Positions 3,117 to 56,892 of a stretch of 64,000 bases of DNA are shown here, piece after piece. Within the stretch, counting starts at the first letter, position 1, and each line of letters opens with the position of its first letter. Origin of the DNA: a virus; the IMG/VR virus record IMGVR_UViG_3300045996_000987. One strand, 5' to 3'. The notes beneath the pieces were generated by a model. That model saw only the letters and a list, made by a program, of their open reading frames with translations. It made no database searches and was not told the origin of the DNA. The translations under genes and the position numbers were made by a program.

Positions 3117-3316
3117 CACGCCGGCACCGTGACGGGTCCGGGTCCGGGCATCACCCACAGCGCCTCCTCCTCGTCCTCCTCGATCTCGTCATCGTGGTCC
3201 TCGTCCTGCTCTTCGTCCTCATCCCCGAACAGGGTGGCCGAGAGCACGAAGAGGATGCCAATGACGGCGAGGATGAGCGAGAGGTACGGCGAGGGGCTGT
3301 ACTCCACGAGCCTCAT
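3116..3316 (-). CDS. Small hydrophobic protein with acidic N-terminal half
   Basis: 66-aa ORF: acidic run (DEDEEQDEDHDDEIEEDEEE) then a hydrophobic helix; translationally coupled on both sides. Confidence 0.4.
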   Translation of the reverse strand: MRLVEYSPSPYLSLILAVIGILFVLSATLFGDEDEEQDEDHDDEIEEDEEEALWVMPGPGPVTVPA

Positions 3317-3648
3317 CGCACGGCCCTCAGTCGATCTGCGAGCTTGACGTACGGCACGCGGCCGACGAAGCTCTCGATGACATGCTGGTTGCGGACGAAG
3401 AGCGTCGTGGGGAAGGCCGTGATGCGATACCGGGCCGCCGAGGCGGGACAGGCATCCACGTTCGCCTTAACCACAGCGAAACGGCCGGCGAACTCCTGCG
3501 CGAGCATGTCGAGGGACGGCGCCATCAGCTTGCACGGGCCGCAGTCCGTCTTGTAGAACTCTAGGACGACCACATCGGACGGCAGGCCGAGCAGCAGCGA
3601 CTCAAGGTGGCGGTCGTCCGGGACGTCTATGGCTTTCGCGTTATTCAT
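3313..3648 (-). CDS. trx: Thioredoxin
   Basis: FYKTDCGPCK active site and thioredoxin-fold pattern; CAAGTAACC 6 nt upstream of the ATG. Confidence 0.8.
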   Translation of the reverse strand: MNNAKAIDVPDDRHLESLLLGLPSDVVVLEFYKTDCGPCKLMAPSLDMLAQEFAGRFAVVKANVDACPASAARYRITAFPTTLFVRNQHVIESFVGRVPYVKLADRLRAVR

Positions 3649-3847
3649 CGGGGGTTACTTGTGACATGGCATGCGCCGCATTGACGGTTTCCCGCAGTAG
3701 CTCCAGCGCGTTGCCGATGATCTCGAAGTCGAAGGCCGTGAGGTCTTCGATGCTACGTCCCTGTGACCGGGACTTGCCCACCTTCCGGCGAAGCAGATCA
3801 ATGCGATTGATCGTGCGCTTCACGTCGTGCGTCTCGGAAGCCGGCAT
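3641..3847 (-). CDS. Hypothetical protein
   Basis: 68-aa ORF; CAAGTAATCGAGG upstream of the ATG. Confidence 0.35.
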   Translation of the reverse strand: MPASETHDVKRTINRIDLLRRKVGKSRSQGRSIEDLTAFDFEIIGNALELLRETVNAAHAMSQVTPDE

Positions 3848-3857
3848 TGTACCTCGA

Positions 3858-4340
3858 TTACTTGGGGCGACGCTGCTTGGGCTTCGTCTTTGTAGGCTTT
3901 GGCGTGCGGCGCGGTGGCGGGGAGGGAGACTTCTTCGGTGCGGGCTTCTTGGCCGGTGGGGGCGTAATCGCCGCAGTCGGGGCTTTCACGCGCCAGATGC
4001 CGTCCTTGCCGATCGTGCCGGTCGCGAACCGCTTGGCGTCGGGACCGCGGAGGGTCTGTTTCTTCCGGAATGGGGCCACCGCTTCCGCGCCCACGTAGCC
4101 ATCGAGAAACGAGACGATCACCTCTGTAGGACAGGCGGGATTCCCGCACGGGTACTTGAGATTGCTCACGCCGGGGATGCCGGACGGATTCCGTGTCCAT
4201 CCGCGATGCCCGGCAAGCTCGTGCTCGACCCTCTTGGCCAGCGACGGGATCGAGAAGCAGTGCGGGCAGATGGTCTTTCCGCTGTCTGGCGCATAGGCGC
4301 ACGCGACGCGTTGGACCTTGATCTTCGGGGTGCGTGCCAT
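3858..4340 (-). CDS. Zinc-ribbon protein with Pro/Lys-rich basic tail (histone H1-like), putative DNA binding
   Basis: CPHC...CGNPAC Cys4 motif; C-terminal PPPAKKPAPKKSPSPPPRRTPKPTKTKPKQRRPK. Confidence 0.45.
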   Translation of the reverse strand: MARTPKIKVQRVACAYAPDSGKTICPHCFSIPSLAKRVEHELAGHRGWTRNPSGIPGVSNLKYPCGNPACPTEVIVSFLDGYVGAEAVAPFRKKQTLRGPDAKRFATGTIGKDGIWRVKAPTAAITPPPAKKPAPKKSPSPPPRRTPKPTKTKPKQRRPK

Positions 4341-4395: not shown

Positions 4396-4851
4396 TCAGA
4401 AGGGCAGGCCGGACTTGTTGTCCGCGGACACGCCCGAGGGGCGGTTCACGGGACCACGGCCCGAGCGACGCGCGCCAGAGGGCGCCGACGACGAGGCACC
4501 ACGATCGGACCCACGCGGGGCCGACGCCTCACCGCCCATGGCCTCCTGATACTTCGCGAACGCAGCCTGCGCCATCTCCTCGACGTACTTGACACCGCGC
4601 TCATCACGAGCCTCGGCATCCACGTCATAGGCGGCACGCCAGAAGTCCGAGTATTCCGTCTTCCCGTCCTTCTCGTAGCTGCGGAACGGCGCGGCAACGA
4701 ACACGCCGTTCTTCCCCTCGATCAGCCGCACATCGCGGAACTCGATACCGATCTCGGTATCGACCGTCGTGAAGTAGGCGAGGACATTGCCCTTGCCGTT
4801 CTTCACGGGGCGCATGGCGTACTTACCGGGGAACTGGAAACGCTGGCTCAT
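4396..4851 (-). CDS. SpoVG-like nucleic-acid-binding protein with Gly/Ser/Arg-rich linker and C-terminal ...SGLPF tip
   Basis: RLIEGKNGVFVAAPFRSYEKDGKTEYSDF resembles the SpoVG core; start refined to MSQRF (ATG 4851) with GGAGCAAGTAACA upstream. Confidence 0.4.
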   Translation of the reverse strand: MSQRFQFPGKYAMRPVKNGKGNVLAYFTTVDTEIGIEFRDVRLIEGKNGVFVAAPFRSYEKDGKTEYSDFWRAAYDVDAEARDERGVKYVEEMAQAAFAKYQEAMGGEASAPRGSDRGASSSAPSGARRSGRGPVNRPSGVSADNKSGLPF

Positions 4852-6236: not shown

Positions 6237-6439
6237 AGCTGTCTTTGGCGCAGCCCCGCTTCGATCTGGTCCGCCATGCTCCGCAGCATCGCGGGCAGGG
6301 CCACGGTGGTTGCGAGTGTCGCCTGCACCGAGAAGCCGCTGCCCTTGGCGCCGTTGATGACGAGGAGCGCGACTTCACCCCCGACGCGTTCGCGCACGTC
6401 GGTGGTGATGTCGTCGTATGTGCCGGGTCCGAGGGGCAT
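6233..6439 (-). CDS. Hypothetical protein
   Basis: ORF 6233..6514 with start refined to MPLGPG, overlapping the upstream stop. Confidence 0.3.
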   Translation of the reverse strand: MPLGPGTYDDITTDVRERVGGEVALLVINGAKGSGFSVQATLATTVALPAMLRSMADQIEAGLRQRQL

Positions 6440-12067: not shown

Positions 12068-14302
12068 CTACTCGGACTCGGATCGTCCCTGCTTCTGTCG
12101 CCGGGCTTCCCATGCTCGGCGGGCGCCCTCAGCACGGGCAGGAGACATGACGGTCTTCCCGTCCCGTTTCTTCTGGCGCCACTTCCTCATATAGTCGGTG
12201 GCGTCTTCGCGCCGCCGCTCGTGGTGGGGCGCTTGCGGTTCCTTGTAGACCCCGCGGAGCTTGGCGACTTCCACGCGGGAGAGGTTTCGCAGGGCAACGG
12301 TCACCTTGCTAATTCCCCTCCGAGTGGACCCAACGGTCATTGCTTGCACCGCGAGGGGTTTTCCCGTTCCACAAACGCAAGGGCTCTCGAAGCAGGAGGG
12401 GCACACCTCCGTGGCGCGAACGCCGAGTTGGAGTGCCCGCTGATCGAGAGCGAACTGCTTTTTCTCCTCGCGCGTCATGTTCCGGCAGACGACGCTGTGA
12501 GGGGTGTTCGGGAAGTGCCGGAGCCAGATGTGAAGCTGATAGGGGCGGCCGTGGGAGCGGTCCTTCGGGTCGAACTGGATGTCGATCCGGCGCACCCAGT
12601 ACCCGATGATCCGGAGCTTGTCTTCGAGCGGGGAGTGCTCCCACGCTTCCAGCACCTCCGACGTCTCATCAAGGATCTCCTCGATCATCTGCCAGTCGTC
12701 GGTCGAGCGCATCGACGCCGACTCGGCATCCTTCACAGCCTCCTGCGCCGCCTGTAGCTCGACGCCCAACCGGGCCAGCCCGTCCCGGTGCATCTGCTTC
12801 GAGAACTCGTCCGGGGTCCGGTCGATCTCGTCGGCCTTCGCGCGTGCCGATTCGAGGATGGCCTTGACCTTGGCCTTCGCCTTCTCGACCGAGTTCTCAG
12901 ACGCCTCGACGTTGTTGACGGCCTCCTCGTAGAGCGCCTTCATGGCCAGTCCCCACGCCGGGCCGGTGCGGAACTTTTTCAGTTCGTCACGGACGGCGCA
13001 CTCCACGGACCAGCCATCGACGTGATACTCACGGCAGCCGAGCGCCTTCTGCCGCTCCCGCATCTCCTGCTTCTCGCGGTTGTAGGTGCGCGAGCGGTGC
13101 TTGTACTCGGCCGACCCGTACTGGAGAAAGTGGCCTTCCTTCCCGTTCGGCTTCCGGGTGCGGGCCGTGTAGAGGCAGCCGCAGTCCGCGCAGAACATGA
13201 TGTTCGAGAGGACACGGGCCGAGTACGGCTCCGGCCGCTTCCGGCGCTGTTGGTCCCGGCGCTCCATCTCGTCCTGCACCTTCTGCCAGAGCGAAAGGGG
13301 CACCATCGGTTCCCAGTTCGCGTCGTACCATTCCTTCTCCTGCACCTTCCGCCCGCCGTAGGGCACCTTCCCGATCAGCACCTTATTGGTGAGAACCGCC
13401 CGCACCCCCCGCGTGTCCCATAGCTCGTTGTTGTGCGAGTTCCGGTAGCCTGACTTGTTCATCAACTCCACGAGCCGGGGGAACGACCAGTGGCGCAGGA
13501 AGGCCGGGGCCAGTGTGTCGGTCCAGAACGCGATTTTCTCGTCGTGCGGCTGGAGGATGGTCGAGTTCTTCTGGCCGTAGTCGCCGGGGAGCGTCTTCAC
13601 CTCACCGAAGTCGTCGGTGTACTTCTCGCCCGTCGAGTCGCGGAGCGGCACCTTCCGGCGGGTGCAGAAGCGCACCGTACCGAACGGCGCCCGCGAGTAG
13701 ACCCAGTACCCGAGCTTGGCCCAGTCCTGCTTCCCCCGCGACGTGTCGAGCGTGAGGTTGGCCGACGTCTCACCGGCCTGCCGGATGGCCATCTGGAACG
13801 TGAAGTCATCGACTTCATCGAAGCCGGTATCGGCCACACCATTGACAAAGCGCGGCAGCCAGCCCGCCTCCCACAACTGGAGATAGACGAGCGCCGCCTT
13901 CCGGGCCTCAACGATTAGCTCGTCGTTCTTCCCCTTCCGAACCGGACGAGCGAAGCGCGACGGGTGATTGATCCGGATGTGGCACTTGTTCTCCCGTGGC
14001 TGCGGATTGGCGAGGCAGAAGGCTACCATCCGCTCGAACTGCGGGCGGTCCCACTTCCGGCCGGACATCTTGTCCCCGTAGTGCGTGGGGATCTCCGTGC
14101 CCGGAATGGTCAGCGGCACCTCGCCCCACTTCCGGTAGATCTCGTTGTGCTGCTGTGGAATGGAATGCGACTGGTTCGTCGCCTCCGCGCGAGACGACGA
14201 TCGAGCGTACACGAGGGACGTGCCCGGAGGCACGCGGAGCCCGCGGGCGGGGGTGAGCCCACCGACGAGCACCTTGAGATCGGGTCTGGCGGGTGAGGTC
14301 AT
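12068..14302 (-). CDS. Large serine recombinase (phage integrase type)
   Basis: SLVYARSSS...Q...DRPQFERM resolvase catalytic motifs, a long recombinase domain, a CADCGC zinc ribbon and a coiled-coil. Start refined to MTSPARP (ATG 14302) with GGTAACCCAA-ATG upstream. Confidence 0.8.
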   Translation of the reverse strand: MTSPARPDLKVLVGGLTPARGLRVPPGTSLVYARSSSRAEATNQSHSIPQQHNEIYRKWGEVPLTIPGTEIPTHYGDKMSGRKWDRPQFERMVAFCLANPQPRENKCHIRINHPSRFARPVRKGKNDELIVEARKAALVYLQLWEAGWLPRFVNGVADTGFDEVDDFTFQMAIRQAGETSANLTLDTSRGKQDWAKLGYWVYSRAPFGTVRFCTRRKVPLRDSTGEKYTDDFGEVKTLPGDYGQKNSTILQPHDEKIAFWTDTLAPAFLRHWSFPRLVELMNKSGYRNSHNNELWDTRGVRAVLTNKVLIGKVPYGGRKVQEKEWYDANWEPMVPLSLWQKVQDEMERRDQQRRKRPEPYSARVLSNIMFCADCGCLYTARTRKPNGKEGHFLQYGSAEYKHRSRTYNREKQEMRERQKALGCREYHVDGWSVECAVRDELKKFRTGPAWGLAMKALYEEAVNNVEASENSVEKAKAKVKAILESARAKADEIDRTPDEFSKQMHRDGLARLGVELQAAQEAVKDAESASMRSTDDWQMIEEILDETSEVLEAWEHSPLEDKLRIIGYWVRRIDIQFDPKDRSHGRPYQLHIWLRHFPNTPHSVVCRNMTREEKKQFALDQRALQLGVRATEVCPSCFESPCVCGTGKPLAVQAMTVGSTRRGISKVTVALRNLSRVEVAKLRGVYKEPQAPHHERRREDATDYMRKWRQKKRDGKTVMSPARAEGARRAWEARRQKQGRSESE

Positions 14303-14307
14303 TTGGG

Positions 14308-14490
14308 TTACCGGGTGATCCTTCGCTTGAAGGCGGTGAAGCACACCTCAATGTACTTCCGGAAGACTAGCGCCTCGTCTTCGTCCTTGTAGCGCTCTGC
14401 GATCCACGCCTTCGCGCGGGCTCGCATCTCCTCCGTGTACGGAGGAAGTGCCACCGGCATACTACTCATACGCGCACGCCGGTCAAGCAC
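14308..14490 (-). CDS. Hypothetical protein
   Basis: 60-aa ORF, likely starting at MSSMPV. Confidence 0.3.
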   Translation of the reverse strand: MLDRRARMSSMPVALPPYTEEMRARAKAWIAERYKDEDEALVFRKYIEVCFTAFKRRITR

Positions 14491-17389: not shown

Positions 17390-18424
17390 CTACGCGGCTA
17401 CGTGGGGAAAGGAACTCCGGGGGTGTGCACTCAGGGCCGACTCGAATGCCTCGTCTTCGAGTCCGAGATAGATACACGTCGTCCGCACGTCGGAGTGTCC
17501 GAGCATCTTGGACACGACGTACAGATCGACTCCCCGATTGAGAAGGTTCGTGGCGAAGCTGTGACGGAATCGGTGCGGCGTGATTCCCGTTTCCCCGATG
17601 CGCTCCGCGTAGACGCCGACGCGCCGCCAGATGGCGTTGCCCGGATCGTCCAGTGTGGCCAGTGGGGTCATGGTGACGATGCCGCGGCGTACGGCGTAGA
17701 AGAAATGAGCGGTGGGCTTGCGTCGGCGCAGATCATCGAACGCAGCATCAGTGCCGATCTCGGATGTTACCGTAACCGTCCGCTCATCCCCGAGATGGCT
17801 CACCGCCCAGTCCCTCAGTGCCCGGTACTCCTCGGGCGTCACGATCGTCTCGCGCTCGACGTTCCCCTTGCCGACCACGTAGAGGCGGTCCCTCTTCGCG
17901 AGGCCGGCGAGGGAGAGACACGCTGCTTCCTCGCGGCGCAGCCCCGACCCGTAGAGCACTTCCAGCATGGCCCGGTCCTGCAACGTGACCGGCGTGACCT
18001 CTTCCGCGTAGACGGCGGCGAAGATCTGCTTGAGGACGTCCTTCGCCAGCGCCTTCATCCGTGCGTTCCGTCTCGGTACGGCTTGGGTCACCAGCCCCAC
18101 AGTAGGATTAGTGTGGCACAGACCCCGCTCAGTTAGAAAGGCGAAGAAGGACCGAAGGGCAGCAACCTTTACGTTCTGCGTCGGGATGGATGCCGCACCC
18201 TTACCGGGGACTTGGGCGATGGCCTGCCGCCATGCGTGCAGGGTTTCGGTCGTGGCGTAGCTCGGGTGACCGAACTCTTGGCAGAAATCCTCCGCGTAGG
18301 TGCGGTATCGAGCGGCGGTGTCCTCGGTGCGTGGTTTCTTTCCGCTGGTGGGTACCCATGCCTCGAACTCGTCCAGCACGAGCGCGAGTGCATCGGATAC
18401 GGTGGTCGGCCTGTGGCGTCCCAT
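17390..18424 (-). CDS. Tyrosine recombinase, XerC/D-like
   Basis: HRFRHSFAT and LGHSDVRTTCIYL catalytic motifs; VLYGSGLRREEA box. Confidence 0.8.
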   Translation of the reverse strand: MGRHRPTTVSDALALVLDEFEAWVPTSGKKPRTEDTAARYRTYAEDFCQEFGHPSYATTETLHAWRQAIAQVPGKGAASIPTQNVKVAALRSFFAFLTERGLCHTNPTVGLVTQAVPRRNARMKALAKDVLKQIFAAVYAEEVTPVTLQDRAMLEVLYGSGLRREEAACLSLAGLAKRDRLYVVGKGNVERETIVTPEEYRALRDWAVSHLGDERTVTVTSEIGTDAAFDDLRRRKPTAHFFYAVRRGIVTMTPLATLDDPGNAIWRRVGVYAERIGETGITPHRFRHSFATNLLNRGVDLYVVSKMLGHSDVRTTCIYLGLEDEAFESALSAHPRSSFPHVAA

Positions 18425-19656: not shown

Positions 19657-19977
19657 CTATTCCTCCGTGGCCGTCACCTCGTGCTGGATCTTGGAGAGAT
19701 CGCCGGGGATCTCGTTGAGGGCGAACCGCTCCTTCGCCTTCTGGAGCGCTTCGATCATGCGGTCGATCTCGGCCGGCGAGATCATCAACTCGAACGAGTG
19801 CCCGACGTACTGGCCCTCGGTGGCCGTGCTCTCCATGCGCCAGCCGAGGACGTCGTGCGCCACGACACCGTGCCGCTGCTTCGAGTAGGTGGCGAAGGCG
19901 GCCGACTGCACCGCCTTCTCCGCGTCGAGCGGGATGATGCTCTTCGCGCTCTTGGTCTTTTTGTTGTGGACGATTTC
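19657..19977 (-). CDS. Hypothetical protein
   Basis: Start refined to MEIVHNKK. Confidence 0.35.
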   Translation of the reverse strand, partial: EIVHNKKTKSAKSIIPLDAEKAVQSAAFATYSKQRHGVVAHDVLGWRMESTATEGQYVGHSFELMISPAEIDRMIEALQKAKERFALNEIPGDLSKIQHEVTATEE

Positions 19978-19979
19978 CA

Positions 19980-20477
19980 TCAGCGCGACGCCTCGATCTG
20001 TTCGAGGAACGTCGTGCGGACGCGCGGATCGGCGTGGCGGAAGCGCGCGTAGACGTCGATCCACATGCGGGCCTCGGCCCTGTTGCCTTCGTTGAGGAAG
20101 CCGTTCGCCCGGCTGAACGCCTCCATCGGGGCGTTCGGGCCGTGCTGCTCACCCCACTCGACCGCCATCTGCGCGATGACGGCCCGGTAGTCCGGGGTAT
20201 CGAGGCTGTCGGCGCGACCGTACTCGATCGCCGCCTCGATCGTCTTCTCGATCTCCGGCGAGTCGGTGATCGGCGTGTAGATCTCGAAGCCGTCGCCGCC
20301 CTGCCGCGCCGCGAGGTGCTGCACCAGCACCGGCCTGCCGTTCGGGGCGAGGTAGTAGTACACCGCCTTCTGCGCGCCCTGACCGGGGCGCACGAACTTG
20401 AAGCCCGCCTCTTCGAGCCGGTCGCACGCGACGTCGAAGCGGTTCTTCTCCATCAGCTTGTTGATCTGCTCGGCCAT
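19980..20477 (-). CDS. Hypothetical protein
   Basis: 165-aa ORF. Confidence 0.4.
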   Translation of the reverse strand: MAEQINKLMEKNRFDVACDRLEEAGFKFVRPGQGAQKAVYYYLAPNGRPVLVQHLAARQGGDGFEIYTPITDSPEIEKTIEAAIEYGRADSLDTPDYRAVIAQMAVEWGEQHGPNAPMEAFSRANGFLNEGNRAEARMWIDVYARFRHADPRVRTTFLEQIEASR

Positions 20478-44984: not shown

Positions 44985-45047
44985 ACGGTTACCTCCTACG
45001 GGTTACTTGGATGGGACACGCAGCCTTACTGGGAGTAAGGCTGACAG

Positions 45048-45134
45048 GGGACGAGGCACGAATCGAACGTGCGCCTCCGCGAGAACACGCATTACTGAGC
45101 GAGTCGCGGCGCTCTGCCACTGAGCTACCCGTCC
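45048..45134 (-). tRNA. tRNA-like gene with oversized (21-23 nt) anticodon loop
   Basis: Minus strand. Acceptor GGACGGG/CTCGTCC, D-arm GCTCAGTGGCAGAGC, T-arm GCACGTTCGATTCGTGC; the anticodon stem CCGCG/CGCGG encloses ACTCGCTCAGTAATGCGTGTTCT. Confidence 0.35.
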
Positions 45135-45498: not shown

Positions 45499-45555
45499 TG
45501 GCATGCCGCACGAGTCGAACGTGCGCGGAGTAGTGCTCCGGTCCAGACGCATGCC
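45499..45555 (-). ncRNA. Truncated tRNA-like element (acceptor, anticodon-like hairpin and T-arm; no D-arm)
   Basis: T-arm GCACGTTCGACTCGTGC is nearly identical to the element at 45048-45134; flanked by GGCATGC/GCATGCC. Confidence 0.2.
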
Positions 45556-45605
45556 GCTTGGCTAGAGCATGGTACAGCCCTCCATTAGCTGAGGAACATC
45601 GGGGA

Positions 45606-48403: not shown

Positions 48404-48445
48404 TTTGGTCACCTTTGGAAACTGGGTTGAACAGTCGCAAGGCAT

Positions 48446-51613: not shown

Positions 51614-51871
51614 ATGCGCGCCAGCACGCCCACCGTGCTCGTAGACCCGCGCGAGATCTACCGCCGAGAGCGGAACTCCCCCACGCGCGAGGGCTCGCAC
51701 GATCGCCTCATGGCCGAGGCCCAGCGCCTCTTCGACGCCGCGCTCGCAGACGACAAGGCGAAGCGCGAGACGCAGAAGAAGGGCGGGCGCCCGAAGATGA
51801 AGCCGTTGAACACCGAGACGCGGCGCCGGGCGAAAAAAGTTTTGGAGCGAGCGACCGATTCTGTCCTATAG
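51614..51871 (+). CDS. Hypothetical basic protein
   Basis: Start MRASTPTV with a GGAGAG RBS; the 3' end overlaps promoter-like element B. Confidence 0.35.
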   Translation: MRASTPTVLVDPREIYRRERNSPTREGSHDRLMAEAQRLFDAALADDKAKRETQKKGGRPKMKPLNTETRRRAKKVLERATDSVL

Positions 51872-53025: not shown

Positions 53026-53210
53026 TGCCCCGCTACCTCTTCTCGTACCAAGGACGGCCCGCCTACCTGCCGCCGCGGTTCGTGGTCATCGACGCGCCGT
53101 CGCTCGAAGAGTGCGCGCCGATCGCGGAACCCCTGCGCCTGCGGTTCGAGGGGTACGCCGATGGGAGCGCGGTCGAATACAACGCGTGGCCCGAGTTGGT
53201 CGCGCACTGA
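53025..53210 (+). CDS. Hypothetical small protein
   Basis: TGATG-coupled start MPRYLF. Confidence 0.35.
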   Translation: MPRYLFSYQGRPAYLPPRFVVIDAPSLEECAPIAEPLRLRFEGYADGSAVEYNAWPELVAH

Positions 53211-53830
53211 TGCAGCCCTGCGAGTGCATCCCCGGCCCCACGGTCGTGCCCGAGCCCGCGACGTTCGCGCTCGTGGCGATCGGCCTCCTCTTGCTCGCCG
53301 TGCTCCACAAGCGGCGACGGCGGGTAGGGCTCGGGCTTCTCGCGGTGCTCACGTTCGCCCGCCCGGCCGAGGCGCAGTGCCCGTGCCCGCCGATCGTCCC
53401 GACGACGCCGGAGCTTCCGGCGCCCGTGGCCGATACGACAGGCTCACGCAACCGTGTTCCGTGGTGGCCGTTCCTCGCGCCCTTCCTCGTGCTGCCGTTC
53501 ATCGGCGGGGACGACGACGACGCGGAGATCGGGGCCGGCGAAGGCACCAGTAGCCCGCCCGCGGCGCCGGCTGCGCCGCTTTCGTTCTCCGACTTCCACG
53601 AGCGCACAGTGGCCGGCAGCGAGCCAGAACTGACACCGAGTGCGCGCGTGTTCCGGCAGCAGATGCACGCGGTCCCATCTCCGACCGCGCCCTCCGACGT
53701 GCACGAGCGGCCTACGGAGCGCATGGGCGTCGTACCACCGAAGACGGCCACGGTGCTGCCGTTCGCTCTCATGCTCGGGCTCGCGCTGTCGAGCGCGGGG
53801 CTCGCGCTCCTACGAAGGAAGAAGGCGTAG
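53210..53830 (+). CDS. Membrane-anchored Pro-rich protein with N-terminal PEP-TM-KRRRR segment and C-terminal TM plus RRKKA
   Basis: VPEPATFALVAIGLLLLAVLHKRRRR near the N-terminus; C-terminal VLPFALMLGLALSSAGLALLRRKKA. Confidence 0.4.
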   Translation: MQPCECIPGPTVVPEPATFALVAIGLLLLAVLHKRRRRVGLGLLAVLTFARPAEAQCPCPPIVPTTPELPAPVADTTGSRNRVPWWPFLAPFLVLPFIGGDDDDAEIGAGEGTSSPPAAPAAPLSFSDFHERTVAGSEPELTPSARVFRQQMHAVPSPTAPSDVHERPTERMGVVPPKTATVLPFALMLGLALSSAGLALLRRKKA

Positions 53831-54186: not shown

Positions 54187-54637
54187 GTACGTCGTCGGCT
54201 TCGCCTACGACTCCGTTGGTCGTGTCGTCCTCATCCGGAAGACGCGGCCCACATGGCAGGCGGGGAAGCTCAACGGCGTCGGCGGGAAGATCGAAGCGCA
54301 CGAGACGGCGAAGCAGGCGATGGCCAGAGAGTTCGAGGAAGAGACGGGCGTGCAGACGCTCTCGACCGCGTGGCGTCACGTCGGTACGATGATCGGGGCC
54401 GCGTATGTTGTGCACATCCTTGCATTCGAGAGTGACACGATTACACTCGAAGTAGCGACAACGACGGACGAGCAAGTGGTGGTGCGCGACGGCCGGCGAC
54501 TGCCGGAAGACTGCCTCCCGAACGTGCCCTACCTCGTCGGCATGGCGATGGATCGCGACCTCACCGGGGCTCGCCTCGTGTACGGCCTGCCCGAGCCGGT
54601 GACGCAAGAAGAAAGGTGGAAGATTTCGGCAGCCTGA
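54173..54637 (+). CDS. NUDIX hydrolase
   Basis: Nudix box GGKIEAHETAKQAMAREFEEETGV (GGx5Ex7REUxEExGU). Confidence 0.75.
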   Translation: MTKTEYVVGFAYDSVGRVVLIRKTRPTWQAGKLNGVGGKIEAHETAKQAMAREFEEETGVQTLSTAWRHVGTMIGAAYVVHILAFESDTITLEVATTTDEQVVVRDGRRLPEDCLPNVPYLVGMAMDRDLTGARLVYGLPEPVTQEERWKISAA

Positions 54638-54647
54638 CCCCCGATTC

Positions 54648-54674
54648 TGTCCTGTAGGCGAAAATCGAGAGGTA
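54648..54674 (+). promoter_or_regulatory. Promoter-like element TGTCCT-N13-GAGAGGTA(AGGGGTGTAAG) upstream of the tRNA cluster
   Basis: tgtcct(54648-53), gagaggta(54667-74). Confidence 0.45.
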
Positions 54675-54757
54675 AGGGGTGTAAGCGAAGCGGTTCCTCG
54701 TTCCCGGCGAAAGCGAAAACGAGGTGGTGGAGGGTGACTGGCAGCAGTCGCCCCTAG

Positions 54758-54852
54758 TACGAGGTGGTGAACGGATAGCACCCGATTGCGCACCGCCCTT
54801 TGAGGGCGGGAAGGCGGGCGGCCCATGCGAGGTTCGAGTCCTCGCCCTCGTA
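54758..54852 (+). tRNA. Irregular tRNA-like gene (possible anticodon TTG; abnormal arm lengths)
   Basis: Acceptor TACGAGG/CCTCGTA, T-arm CGAGGTTCGAGTCCTCG, anticodon-like stem-loop CCGCC-CTTTGAG-GGCGG; the body is about 20 nt too long. Confidence 0.25.
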
Positions 54853-54865
54853 CGTGATGTGTGAT

Positions 54866-54945
54866 GGAACGCAGCGGTACGGCCGCCGTCAGTCCTCACC
54901 GGGCGATTGGCGCACGGCGGGAGGGTTCGACCCCCTCCCCGTTCC
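54866..54945 (+). tRNA. Irregular tRNA-like sequence (T-arm GAGGGTTCGACCCCCTC)
   Basis: T-loop consensus and partial acceptor pairing only. Confidence 0.2.
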
Positions 54946-54950
54946 CTTCG

Positions 54951-55024
54951 GTCCTTCTAGCTCAACTGGTTAGAGCAGCGGACTCTTAATCCGCAGGTTC
55001 TCGGTTCGATCCCGAGGGGGGACA
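54951..55024 (+). tRNA. tRNA-Lys(CTT): tRNA-Lys (anticodon CTT)
   Basis: Cloverleaf: acceptor GTCCTTC/GGGGGAC with two G-U pairs, D-arm GCTCAACTGGTTAGAGC, anticodon loop CTCTTAA, T-arm CTCGGTTCGATCCCGAG. Confidence 0.65.
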
Positions 55025-55166
55025 TAGGTACGGATGCAGTCGGGCCGCGGGAGTACAACATCGGGGGTGTGCGCAAGCACGAGTCGTTCCCCGTCAACGC
55101 TCCGGGTTCCGTAACTTCCGTACCGCTCGATCGAGTGGAAAGACCGGCGAAGACCCGGTACGGACA

Positions 55167-55200
55167 GGCTCCGTTCGTCTAGTCAGATAGGACGCCACTC
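55167..55200 (+). pseudogene. Diverged duplicate of the 5' half of tRNA-Glu (no 3' partner)
   Basis: GGCTCCGTTCGTCTAGTCAGATAGGACGCC shares CCGTTCGTCTA with tRNA-Glu at 55427; no complementary acceptor or T-arm follows. Confidence 0.3.
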
Positions 55201-55426
55201 ACGGCAGGTGTTGGTAGCAGGTGCGGGGCTCGCTTCATGGCGAAGCAATGCGAGGCCACAACCGTCCCGAGGCCCTAAGTTCCCACTGGTAGCTCAGTGG
55301 GCGACCTCCTTCTTAGGGTGTTCCCTCTACTCTTGGAGCGCGAACTAGGTCGCCACTGTGGTCGTAAGCGGGTAGCCTCGGAGTGTCTTGTCTTGGACAG
55401 CCCGCTCGTCGCAGGTGTCAGGTGAA

Positions 55427-55498
55427 GGCCCGTTCGTCTATCGGTTAGGACGCTACCCTTTCAAGGTGGAGAGACGAGTTCGACTCTCGTACGGGCTA
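55427..55498 (+). tRNA. tRNA-Glu(TTC): tRNA-Glu (anticodon TTC)
   Basis: Acceptor GGCCCGT/ACGGGCT, D-arm GTCTATCGGTTAGGAC, anticodon loop CTTTCAA, T-arm ACGAGTTCGACTCTCGT. Confidence 0.7.
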
Positions 55499-55938
55499 CT
55501 GCTCTTCGCTGTAACTTGAAGGGACTTAGGGAAGTGTAGGACCAGTACCGGGGCCGACATGGCATCGACTGGTATGTGACACGGAACGTCGAAGTGCGCC
55601 GAGGGACTTCATCTCGCCTCGTAAATCACGGGTGGACAAAACACAAATGCCAGCGATAACCTCGCGGCAGCGGATCGGCTTCTGGCCGAAGTTCTTGGCG
55701 GCGTAGCCGTCGAGAACCCCCACTTCGCAGCGGTCTAACGACCCTCGTAGCGGGTGACGCAACCCTGACGGACTCCGATACAGTCAGGGGCCTTGCATCG
55801 GGCGACACCGGGAGAGACTGGGGGTCTTGTCAGTGTCCCTTACCACGACTGACGACGGTTGGCTCGCTCGCCACGGGACCGTAACACCCGAAGGAGCTAC
55901 GCGCGCTGAACAAGACTGAACGACGATCATATCAACAC

Positions 55939-55963
55939 GGGAGTTCGATTCTCCCCGGCTCCA
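55939..55963 (+). ncRNA. Orphan tRNA 3'-end-like sequence (T-arm, acceptor 3' strand, CCA) ending a roughly 430-nt non-coding stretch
   Basis: GGGAGTTCGATTCTCCCCGGCTCCA; no matching 5' acceptor or D-arm upstream. Confidence 0.3.
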
Positions 55964-56181
55964 CTTGCTCCACGAGGTCACCATGCAGGTCATGTATCCA
56001 CGGACGCGAGTAACCGTACCGACAATGGAAGACGTGAAGAAGACGTGGGCGAGCCTACGTCATCGTGTGAAGTACGCGGTGAGCAAGACCTACCGTGAGC
56101 AGTTGGAACGGGAACGCGCAGAGCAGCGCGTGCGGGCCATGATGTACCTGCGGACGCCACCCGTCGTATAGCTCGCGGTAC

Positions 56182-56267
56182 GCCGGGGTATCCAAGAGGC
56201 CAAAGGGTGCTGACTGTAAATCAGCCGGGCGCCACGCCCTTCGTAGGTTCGACCCCTACCCCCGGCA
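56182..56267 (+). tRNA. tRNA-Tyr(GTA): tRNA-Tyr (anticodon GTA)
   Basis: Acceptor GCCGGGG/CCCCGGC, anticodon loop CTGTAAA, long variable arm, T-arm GTAGGTTCGACCCCTAC. Confidence 0.7.
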
Positions 56268-56274
56268 CTGTGCT

Positions 56275-56358
56275 GCTCGGATGGCGAAACTGGTAAACGC
56301 GCCAGACTTAGGATCTGGTGGGCGAAAGCCCCTGTCGGTTCGAGTCCGACTCTGAGCA
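56275..56358 (+). tRNA. tRNA-Leu(TAG): tRNA-Leu (anticodon TAG)
   Basis: Acceptor GCTCGGA/TCTGAGC, anticodon loop CTTAGGA, long variable arm, T-arm GTCGGTTCGAGTCCGAC. Confidence 0.7.
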
Positions 56359-56525
56359 TGTTGTCGCGTTTCCCCTGACAGGACGGGCGGTTAGTCATCA
56401 ACCAATATTGTCTGTCGCCGGTAGTTCGGAAATGCTCTCGTTTGATGGGGCGCGCTTGTAGAGGTGCTTAAACGCCGAAACCCCCAAAGGCACCCGTAGA
56501 TGAGCGACGGGGCCGACTACCAATG

Positions 56526-56560
56526 AAAAAGCCCGGTCACCGCAAGGTGCCGGGCTTCTT
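56526..56560. terminator. Bidirectional rho-independent terminator
   Basis: AAAAAGCCCGG...CCGGGCTTCTT, with an A-run before and a T-run after. Confidence 0.6.
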
Positions 56561-56580
56561 CATGTCCACCGCGCTCGCGC

Positions 56581-56892
56581 TCAGGTGATGGCCTCGATGT
56601 TCGTCCAGAGGCCGATCGTCGCACCCTTCGGACGGATCTTGATCTGGCCGCCGAGGATCTTCGTGTCCTCGATGAAGACCTCCACGCCCGCCCGGAGCAT
56701 GATGCACCGCGACTGCGCGATGAGGCTCGCCGCGGCCTCTTGGTCGCGGTTGACGATGTAGCGCGTGAACTGGCTGTGATCTTCGCGGGTGAGGCAGGCG
56801 GCGTACCCGCTCTTGGTCCGGCGAGACTGCCCCTCGGCGGCCTCAGAGACAGCGAGAAGGGCGACGGTCGCGAGGGCGAGCTTGGCAAGCAT
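56581..56892 (-). CDS. Secreted small protein (signal peptide)
   Basis: MLAKLALATVALLAVSEAAEG; GGAGG RBS. Confidence 0.5.
   Translation of the reverse strand: MLAKLALATVALLAVSEAAEGQSRRTKSGYAACLTREDHSQFTRYIVNRDQEAAASLIAQSRCIMLRAGVEVFIEDTKILGGQIKIRPKGATIGLWTNIEAIT

Follow-up and report, generated by a model that had tools for sequence, protein, structure and literature searches.

The DNA analyzed here is a 64,000-nt stretch (hereafter the window; 65% GC) of the IMG/VR virus record IMGVR_UViG_3300045996_000987, which is part of a 66-kb JGI metagenome contig from soil, and our interest centers upon a cluster of transfer RNA (tRNA) and related RNA genes located between positions 54690 and 56360. 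A first-pass annotation of the sequence had described four canonical tRNA genes in this cluster, together with two irregular tRNA-like loci, a copy of the 5' half of one tRNA, and a tRNA 3' end that appeared to have no 5' partner. The four canonical genes were readily confirmed. All are encoded on the plus strand, all are called by ARAGORN as cloverleaves with 7-nt anticodon loops, and all exceed the 29-bit threshold of the Rfam tRNA covariance model RF00005. These are tRNA-Lys with anticodon CTT (54951-55024, 64.2 bits), tRNA-Glu with anticodon TTC (55427-55498, 55.6 bits), tRNA-Tyr with anticodon GTA, which is of the bacterial class II type with a long variable arm (56182-56267, 47.5 bits), and tRNA-Leu with anticodon TAG (56275-56358, 58.7 bits). 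Between tRNA-Glu and tRNA-Tyr lies a further gene on the same strand, which encodes a one-piece transfer-messenger RNA (tmRNA; 55550-55963/6). As read from the sequence, CCA is not encoded at the 3' end of any of the four tRNAs or of the tmRNA, so it would have to be added post-transcriptionally in all five.

A complete one-piece tmRNA gene

The Rfam tmRNA model RF00023, which has a threshold of 47 bits, matches this gene over the full length of the model (positions 1-374) with a score of 69.9 bits (E = 4e-25), and the tmRNA mode of ARAGORN, which was among the checks that the first-pass annotation had proposed, likewise calls a tmRNA with a tag. The component parts are contiguous, with the 5' acceptor strand, the tRNA-like domain (TLD), pseudoknot 1 (PK1), the tag reading frame, and helix 2 all in one piece. 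In the 7-bp acceptor stem, GGGGCCG (55550-55556) pairs with CGGCUCC (55956-55962) and is completed by a discriminator A, and the third pair of this stem is the G3·U70 pair of alanine identity (G55552·U55960). The T-arm reads GGGAG-UUCGAUU-CUCCC. Only the PK2-PK4 region aligns poorly to the model. The segment at 55939-55963 previously regarded as an orphan 3' end does therefore have a 5' partner, namely the GGGGCCG strand, and the whole constitutes a full-length tmRNA. The terminal CCA that had been noted on this segment consists of C71, C72, and the discriminator A73, with CTT as the next bases, and is not an encoded CCA, while the roughly 430-nt stretch reported to contain no open reading frame (ORF) corresponds to the body of the tmRNA plus a 50-nt spacer. 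Likewise, the prospect that covariance models would score the four canonical tRNAs and nothing else did not materialize, as the tmRNA is a fifth strongly scoring gene. Thus, the apparent orphan end and the ORF-less stretch together are a complete one-piece tmRNA gene, which removes the apparent anomaly at this locus.

Two other metagenome contigs bear upon the cluster. The first is a 2.3-kb contig from a second sample (L233), which is 100% identical to window positions 54600-55830. This identity indicates that the window sequence is real, but for the same reason the contig contributes no covariation. The second is a 21-kb farmland-soil contig (L019), which was the only informative and the only syntenic relative found. 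Both L019 and the window share a common layout consisting of a NUDIX gene, a promoter-like motif, a structured leader, an irregular tRNA-like element, tRNA-Lys(CTT), tRNA-Glu(TTC), and the tmRNA. In L019, the tmRNA is followed by the gene for a 5'-3' exonuclease, and the exonuclease and NUDIX proteins are 51% and 43% identical, respectively, to those of the window. The L019 tmRNA scores 78.1 bits with RF00023. When the two tmRNAs were aligned, 18 of the 77 predicted base pairs were found to have changed on both sides with pairing kept, including acceptor pairs 4 and 5, several pairs of helix 2, and two pairs of the T-stem, while the G3·U70 pair is invariant.

The tag reading frame (55649-55738, plus strand), which is called by ARAGORN, begins with the resume codon GCC at 55649 and ends with the stop codon TAA at 55736-55738. 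It encodes the 29-residue tag ASDNLAAADRLLAEVLGGVAVENPHFAAV, and its counterpart in L019 encodes ANDNVDAVQALLDEVVIEDFLRSLSVEEVAA, such that tag length ranges from 29 to 31 residues across the two phages. The residues common to both tags follow the pattern A-[SN]-D-N-x-x-A-x-x-x-L-L-x-E-V. Where residues are conserved, their codons differ synonymously at the third base, and neither of the other two frames of the tag region is conserved in L019. This conservation settles the reading frame of the tag. We had also considered the +1 frame (window 55650-55706), which reads ...AITSRQRIGFWPKFLAA-stop, has an FLAA/LAA end, and places its stop codon in a hairpin loop, but its L019 counterpart is an unrelated peptide and its LAA ending is probably coincidental. 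Tags of 29-31 residues are unlike typical cellular tags and resemble the long tags of mycobacteriophage tmRNAs. The conservation of such a long tag suggests that these phage tmRNAs would label rescued proteins differently from the host, a difference that bears upon how phages handle ribosome stalling during infection.

Irregular tRNA-like elements and tRNA fragments

Upstream of tRNA-Lys are the two irregular tRNA-like elements, which we refer to as A (54757-54853 as the best coordinates) and B (54866-54945), both on the plus strand. In agreement with the earlier description of good T-arms and acceptor pairing, both have perfect T-arms, while 7 of 7 acceptor pairs are Watson-Crick in A and 6 of 7 are formed in B. 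Element A has an acceptor stem extended by an 8th pair, along with a D-arm-like hairpin whose loop contains GG, an insert of 10 nt, a stem of 5 bp that closes the loop CUUUGAG, a variable region of 17 nt, and a T-stem of 6 bp. In element B, a 6-bp acceptor is stacked upon a 7-bp T-stem and there is a 4-bp D-stem, with neither a 7-nt anticodon loop nor a variable arm. The acceptor/T geometry is thus 8 bp + 6 bp in A and 6 bp + 7 bp in B, compared to 7 + 5 in a canonical tRNA, though the T-loops are canonical and the stems are perfect. RF00005 yielded no match to either element at E<=10, even when the search was confined to 221 nt. ARAGORN calls A and B only at relaxed thresholds and with implausible anticodon arms, and the single 'tRNA-Gly with 94-nt intron' that its intron mode creates by fusing the two is an artefact of two adjacent T-arms. 

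Several other classes of tRNA-shaped RNA were tried as candidates for A and B, including selenocysteine tRNA (tRNA-Sec), allo-tRNA, YrlA, mascRNA, and the tymovirus tRNA-like element, and all scored far under threshold. The best covariance match of B is to tRNA-Sec at 17.1 bits (threshold 47) and A has none, which places neither element among the tRNA-Sec or allo-tRNAs, and the YrlA model RF02553 scored 13.9-14.7 bits against a threshold of 69. No TROVE protein was found among the window ORFs scanned. Separately, two jumbo-phage contigs reached through a homologue of an AAA_28 protein do encode a TROVE (Ro60-like) protein (L234, 343-1905; L235, 1-1182), and these contigs are unrelated to the window. 

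Local alignments evaluated against shuffled sequences showed that the variable arm and T-arm of A resemble those of tRNA-Leu(TAG) and that the T-arm of B resembles that of tRNA-Tyr. A similar pattern is found in the 402-nt non-coding spacer between tRNA-Lys and tRNA-Glu (55025-55426, plus strand), in which the same type of alignment detected two tRNA 5' fragments. One of these is the 5' copy of tRNA-Glu that had been reported at 55167-55200 as 34 nt long; we find it to match at 55167-55198 to the first 30 nt of tRNA-Glu (27 identities and 2 one-base gaps, z = 8.4, with 0 of 200 shuffles as good), with no T-arm or 3' half after it. The other (55285-55300) copies the 5' part of element C, described below, with 15 of 16 positions identical. 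Otherwise, the spacer shows no frame-specific GC signal and a folding z-score of -0.22, and it matches neither an Rfam family nor any of the L019 spacers. Most simply, these spacer fragments and irregular pieces would stem from a dynamic tRNA array in which genes are duplicated and the copies decay. The most likely origin of A, B, and the fragments is that they are copies of neighboring tRNA genes that have diverged or are decaying, given their resemblance to those genes and the failure of A and B to match the tRNA covariance model. This is also the one explanation offered by the first-pass annotation, pseudo-tRNAs derived from past rearrangement, that we retain as the best for A, B, and the tRNA-Glu 5' half.

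The window was also scanned with a strict T-arm pattern (5-bp stem, G53/C61, loop TTCRANN), using 60 dinucleotide shuffles as a control, which identified 10 matches compared to 0.37 expected. Five of these belong to the tRNA and tmRNA genes and two to A and B, while two others revealed additional elements, C and D, both located on the minus strand in intergenic gaps of a long minus-strand operon and both followed by the same hairpin and 5'-untranslated region (UTR) motif. Element C (45047-45134) has a canonical acceptor, D-arm, and T-arm, scores 50.2 bits against the RF00005 threshold of 29, and has a clean cloverleaf as its minimum-energy fold, but a 23-nt insert replaces the 7-nt anticodon loop. 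The ARAGORN call of C as 'tRNA-Glu(ctc), 88 nt' depends upon a mismatched anticodon stem. Element D (45500-45572) was recognized from the T-arm scan, its fold, and its likeness to C; it has 6 of 7 acceptor pairs, an irregular body, a T-arm almost identical to that of C, and no Rfam match. Position 3:70 is A-U in all four elements, none of which bears any likeness to the phage's own TLD, and we therefore rejected the possibility that A-D are TLD-only mimics of tmRNA, as none has the G3·U70 pair required of an alanine-accepting mimic. The tenth T-arm-like motif (48420-48436, minus strand; GACTG-TTCAACC-CAGTT) is found where an ORF ends, with no acceptor to accompany it, and is probably a chance occurrence or a remnant.

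Elements of this type are not confined to the window. An unrelated 221-kb IMG/VR jumbo-phage contig with 30 called tRNAs (L018) contains six more elements with a T-arm, an acceptor, and CCA (954-970, 1417-1433, 3148-3164, 3252-3268, 4691-4707, and 6357-6373, minus strand), all uncalled by ARAGORN at its default threshold. Such uncalled irregular tRNA-like elements seem to be common in phage arrays. As they recur and escape the standard callers, they represent an under-described class, whether debris or functional.

Putative control signals and genomic setting

At the head of the RNA gene cluster is a promoter-like 44-nt motif (54643-54686, plus strand) of the form GATTCTGTCCTG-N25-TGTAAGC, which can also be written as GATTCTGTCCTRTAG-N5-AATCGAGAGGTAAGGGGTGTAAC. 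Copies are found at 51857, 54643, 57007, 59009, and 63578 on the plus strand and at ~4942 and 19193 on the minus strand, all of which are intergenic and co-oriented with the downstream genes. L019 has copies at 3412, 10801, and 11304 in which the first half of the motif is kept, including at the head of its own cluster. The motif is probably a phage-specific promoter or regulatory site and shows no sigma-70-type match. It is followed by a leader (54696-54753, plus strand) comprised of two hairpins (54696-54724 and 54732-54753) separated by GGUGGUGGAGGG. The leader is conserved at L019 3470-3530, where the hairpins flank the same GGUGGUGGAKGG element and show compensatory changes relative to the window, and it has no Rfam match. 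Scans of the cluster for sigma-70 promoters and simple terminators found nothing. However, inspection of the sequence revealed at 56531-56563 (not assigned to a strand) a GC-rich hairpin flanked by an A-run and by a U-rich tail, which has weak terminator-type Rfam matches and was missed by the simple terminator scan because its stem is bulged. It is likely a bidirectional terminator that would close the cluster. Between the tmRNA and tRNA-Tyr there is also a possible small protein gene (55983-56171, plus strand; 62 aa from ATG), in which the GC fractions by codon position are coding-like (0.62/0.41/0.74). It has no Pfam match and is unlike the ORF that follows the L019 tmRNA.

Two other repeated motifs are present in the window. 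The motif CCAAGTAACC, allowing up to one mismatch, occurs at 30 sites compared to 1.3 expected, always on the coding strand and mostly within ~30 nt 5' of an ATG (e.g. 45948 and 37556 on the minus strand and 49773 and 57059 on the plus strand), and it sometimes abuts the ATG directly with no Shine-Dalgarno sequence. It resembles, in the sense orientation, the 16S rRNA sequence ACAAGGUAACC, and may represent an element of the 5'-UTR or of translation initiation of an unusual type. The hairpin CCTTACT-NNN-AGTAAGG is present in 12 copies compared to 0.03 expected, all within 25005-49268 (e.g. 45024, 45468, 45965, and 47169) and usually just upstream of CCAAGTAACC.

Relatives of the window were searched for extensively. 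Exact-protein look-ups with the window proteins, scans of IMG/VR using two proteins (NUDIX and the exonuclease) and two segments of the tmRNA (its 3' end and a conserved block) as queries, and alignment of the exonuclease against IMG/VR and GTDB genomes all yielded no relatives beyond L019 and L233. A metagenome scan with the conserved tmRNA block returned 47 matches, all of which lack a tmRNA, and the contigs of more distant exonuclease and AAA_28 homologues showed no synteny with the window. Among 50,697 phage records, there was no nucleotide similarity other than to the 30-33-nt 3' TLD of the tmRNA, and this stretch alone matches a few of them. Only one syntenic relative was found despite the very large size of the collections. 

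With respect to the host, an ORF at 53111-53830 (plus strand) encodes a PEP-CTERM sorting motif (PF07589, E = 9.5e-5), which hints at a Gram-negative host with an exosortase. Judging from this protein and from the ANDN-type start of the tag, the probable host is a Gram-negative soil bacterium of high GC content and not an actinobacterium. No RNA-repair gene was seen among the ORFs scanned.

Interpretation of the cluster and comparison with known systems

Overall, the locus is likely the RNA cluster of an uncultured phage or phage-like mobile element from soil, in which four tRNAs and a complete tmRNA are accompanied by decaying tRNA-derived duplicates. According to this interpretation, transcription of the cluster would run rightward from the promoter-like motif at 54643 and yield one precursor or a few, which host RNase P and 3' processing enzymes would cut before the CCA-adding enzyme completes the ends. 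The phage tRNAs could then top up or replace host tRNAs for the most used codons of the phage (AAG, GAG, and TAC, at 41, 57, and 26 per 1000) and for CUA/CUG, and they may also stand in for host tRNAs attacked by anticodon nucleases. The tmRNA, presumably charged by the host alanyl-tRNA synthetase and acting with host SmpB, would rescue ribosomes that stall during infection, and the rescued proteins would receive a phage-specific tag instead of the host tag. A, B, and the fragments would retain an acceptor/T-arm minihelix while no longer decoding.

Several observations weigh against this interpretation or some part of it. The tag of the window ends in FAAV (AAV) and not in the LAA (ALAA) or VAA usual of tags suited to proteolysis, and that of L019 ends in EVAA. 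No smpB gene was found nearby among the ~30 ORFs scanned. L019 is the single informative relative, and covariation statistics are weak for this reason. Among the window genes, none could be identified as a hallmark virion gene, and consequently the label 'phage' depends upon the gene repertoire and the relative. Lastly, at the position of A, L019 has its own irregular element (3760-3859), the T-arm of which is nearly identical to that of A (CAUGCG(A)GGUUCGAGUCC(U)CGCC, one base pair shorter), while its acceptor differs in sequence but is fully paired and its variable-arm hairpin is likewise of other sequence. In the orthologous tRNA-Lys and tRNA-Glu genes, the T-stems have diverged between the window and L019, and the near identity of the irregular T-arms therefore hints at selection upon the minihelix of A, albeit from one sequence pair of uncertain orthology.

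This last observation leads to a different explanation for the irregular elements, in which A and B, and also C and D, would be selected, functional, non-decoding tRNA-like RNAs. As such, they might serve as RNase P/RNase Z 'punctuation' to cut and stabilize polycistronic phage transcripts, or alternatively they might act as decoys for anticodon nucleases, modification enzymes, or SmpB. We consider this possible, if doubtful. It would account for the presence of four such elements within 64 kb, all with perfect T-arms, acceptor helices, and GG-containing D-loops, as well as for the shared downstream motifs of C and D in their operon gaps and for the maintained acceptor pairs and variable-arm hairpin of the L019 element. 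There is also a precedent in the TLD-only RNA of mycobacteriophage DS6A, a type of molecule reported to inhibit tmRNA (PMC4131195, PMC11915505). However, the orthology of A and the L019 element depends upon a 23-nt T-arm match, and paired acceptors would be found in any pair of tRNA-derived sequences. In addition, L019 lacks a counterpart of B, no structure is common to the bodies of all four elements, the absence of G3·U70 excludes alanine-accepting TLD mimicry, the folding z-scores of A-D are unremarkable (-0.7 to -1.6), and the similar uncalled elements of other phage arrays may be mere debris. An extended version, in which this lineage keeps non-decoding tRNA-shaped RNAs (A, possibly B, and also C and D in the intergenic gaps of mRNAs) with a selected acceptor, T-arm, and elbow but a free anticodon region, to serve as punctuation or as decoys for tRNA-targeting defence or rescue factors of the host alongside its own tmRNA with a conserved long tag, is in our estimation unlikely.

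A separate question is whether the window might instead derive from a bacterial chromosomal island or some other mobile element, with its tmRNA as a second cellular ssrA allele. The lack of an identified virion gene would fit such an origin, as would the PEP-CTERM protein and the presence of a large serine recombinase and a tyrosine integrase (12068-14344 and 17390-18424, both on the minus strand), and extra ssrA alleles do exist in some bacterial genomes (PMC4131195). On the other hand, both recombinase genes lie within a ~46-kb one-directional block of tightly packed small ORFs, most of which have no family match, and the genes identified include DnaN, a clamp-loader-like ATPase, NUDIX, and the 5'-3' exonuclease, with DnaN, the exonuclease, NUDIX, and the integrase among the PHROG matches. 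The repeated promoter and UTR motifs are likewise phage-style, and L019 carries a primase-helicase and similar small ORFs. The length of the tag, being atypical of cellular tmRNAs, also argues against a cellular allele, and we regard an island origin as quite unlikely.

It is very unlikely that A is an unusual class II-like decoder, with the anticodon UUG for the Gln codons CAA/CAG or with a 4-base anticodon, and that trimming or splicing of the long loop of C produces a tRNA with a normal one. The 7-nt loop on the 5-bp stem of A does have U33 and A37, ARAGORN calls A at a 90% threshold with the 4-base anticodon 'cacc', and C scores as a tRNA apart from its loop. Nevertheless, A combines a 6-bp T-stem and an 8-bp acceptor with a 10-nt insert that separates the D-arm from the anticodon stem, it has no covariance match, and the loop of its L019 counterpart is 8 nt long and unrelated in sequence. 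For C, no register of the 23-nt loop examined by hand yields a canonical U33-NNN-R37 loop, and the group I intron model does not match. Moreover, no short spliceosome-free tRNA introns are known from bacteria or their phages, which counts against splicing of C. Finally, the first-pass annotation had proposed that 55939-55963 might represent an att-core-like fragment or derive from an interrupted tRNA as its 3' exon, which is extremely improbable and already refuted by the full-length tmRNA match. Even though integration often targets the 3' ends of tmRNA and tRNA genes (PMC11915505) and this 30-33-nt end alone matches a few phage records, it is not an isolated fragment that could serve as an attP core but part of a complete contiguous tmRNA, the two recombinase genes at 12-18 kb are >37 kb away rather than adjacent, Intron_gpI has no match at E<=10 in 54500-56600, and at least one of the 3'-end matches, that in Achromobacter phage JWDelta, belongs to a permuted tmRNA that is likewise full.

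The favored interpretation, a phage cluster of tRNAs and a tmRNA with decaying duplicates, has clear parallels among known systems. Phage tmRNAs within tRNA arrays have been described in Bxz1-type mycobacteriophages, Wildcat, and Bacillus phage G (PMC4131195, PMC1475703, PMC4472892). Like the window, the subcluster C1 phages (Bxz1, Cali, Catera, Rizal, ScottMcG, Spud, and ET08), Wildcat, and phage G have a one-piece tmRNA among phage tRNA genes. However, the Bxz1-type phages, Wildcat, and phage G have ~30 or more tRNAs compared to four in the window, and there is no nucleotide similarity between them and the window beyond the 3' TLD. The Bxz1 tag is long, acidic, and unlike that of the host, as is the window tag. 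Relative to the bacterial one-piece tmRNA described by RF00023, the window gene has the same G3·U70 pair and T-arm, a PK1 that includes the GCCUCGUAAA motif, GCC as its resume codon, and helix 2, but it encodes a tag of 29 residues ending in AAV, rather than ~10-12 residues, and it resides in a phage-like genome. A permuted two-piece tmRNA is present in Achromobacter phage JWDelta (KF787094.1, ~19736-20120; L236, 574-958), where it scores 95.8 bits with RF04321 and is unannotated in GenBank. Its 3' TLD shares 97% identity with window 55932-55964 across 33 nt, whereas the tmRNA is of the permuted form, the phage is an N4-like lytic proteobacterial phage, and there is no other similarity to the window.

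The irregular elements also have their counterparts. The tRNA cluster of phage T4 yields two stable tRNA-like RNAs that undergo processing by RNase P, namely species 1 and species 2 (rnaC and rnaD), the function of which is not known. Expression and processing are established for these T4 RNAs, while the window elements are predictions from sequence. Mycobacteriophage DS6A carries a TLD-only mini-tmRNA (PMC4131195, PMC11915505), which resembles A and B in being a non-decoding phage RNA with an acceptor and a T-arm, but A-D fall outside of this class in that they have no G3·U70 pair. Examples of tmRNA genes in phages and of tRNA-like elements that go uncalled in phage arrays are therefore already known, and to these the window contributes a tRNA cluster with a tmRNA gene from a lineage of high-GC soil phages that has been sampled only sparsely.

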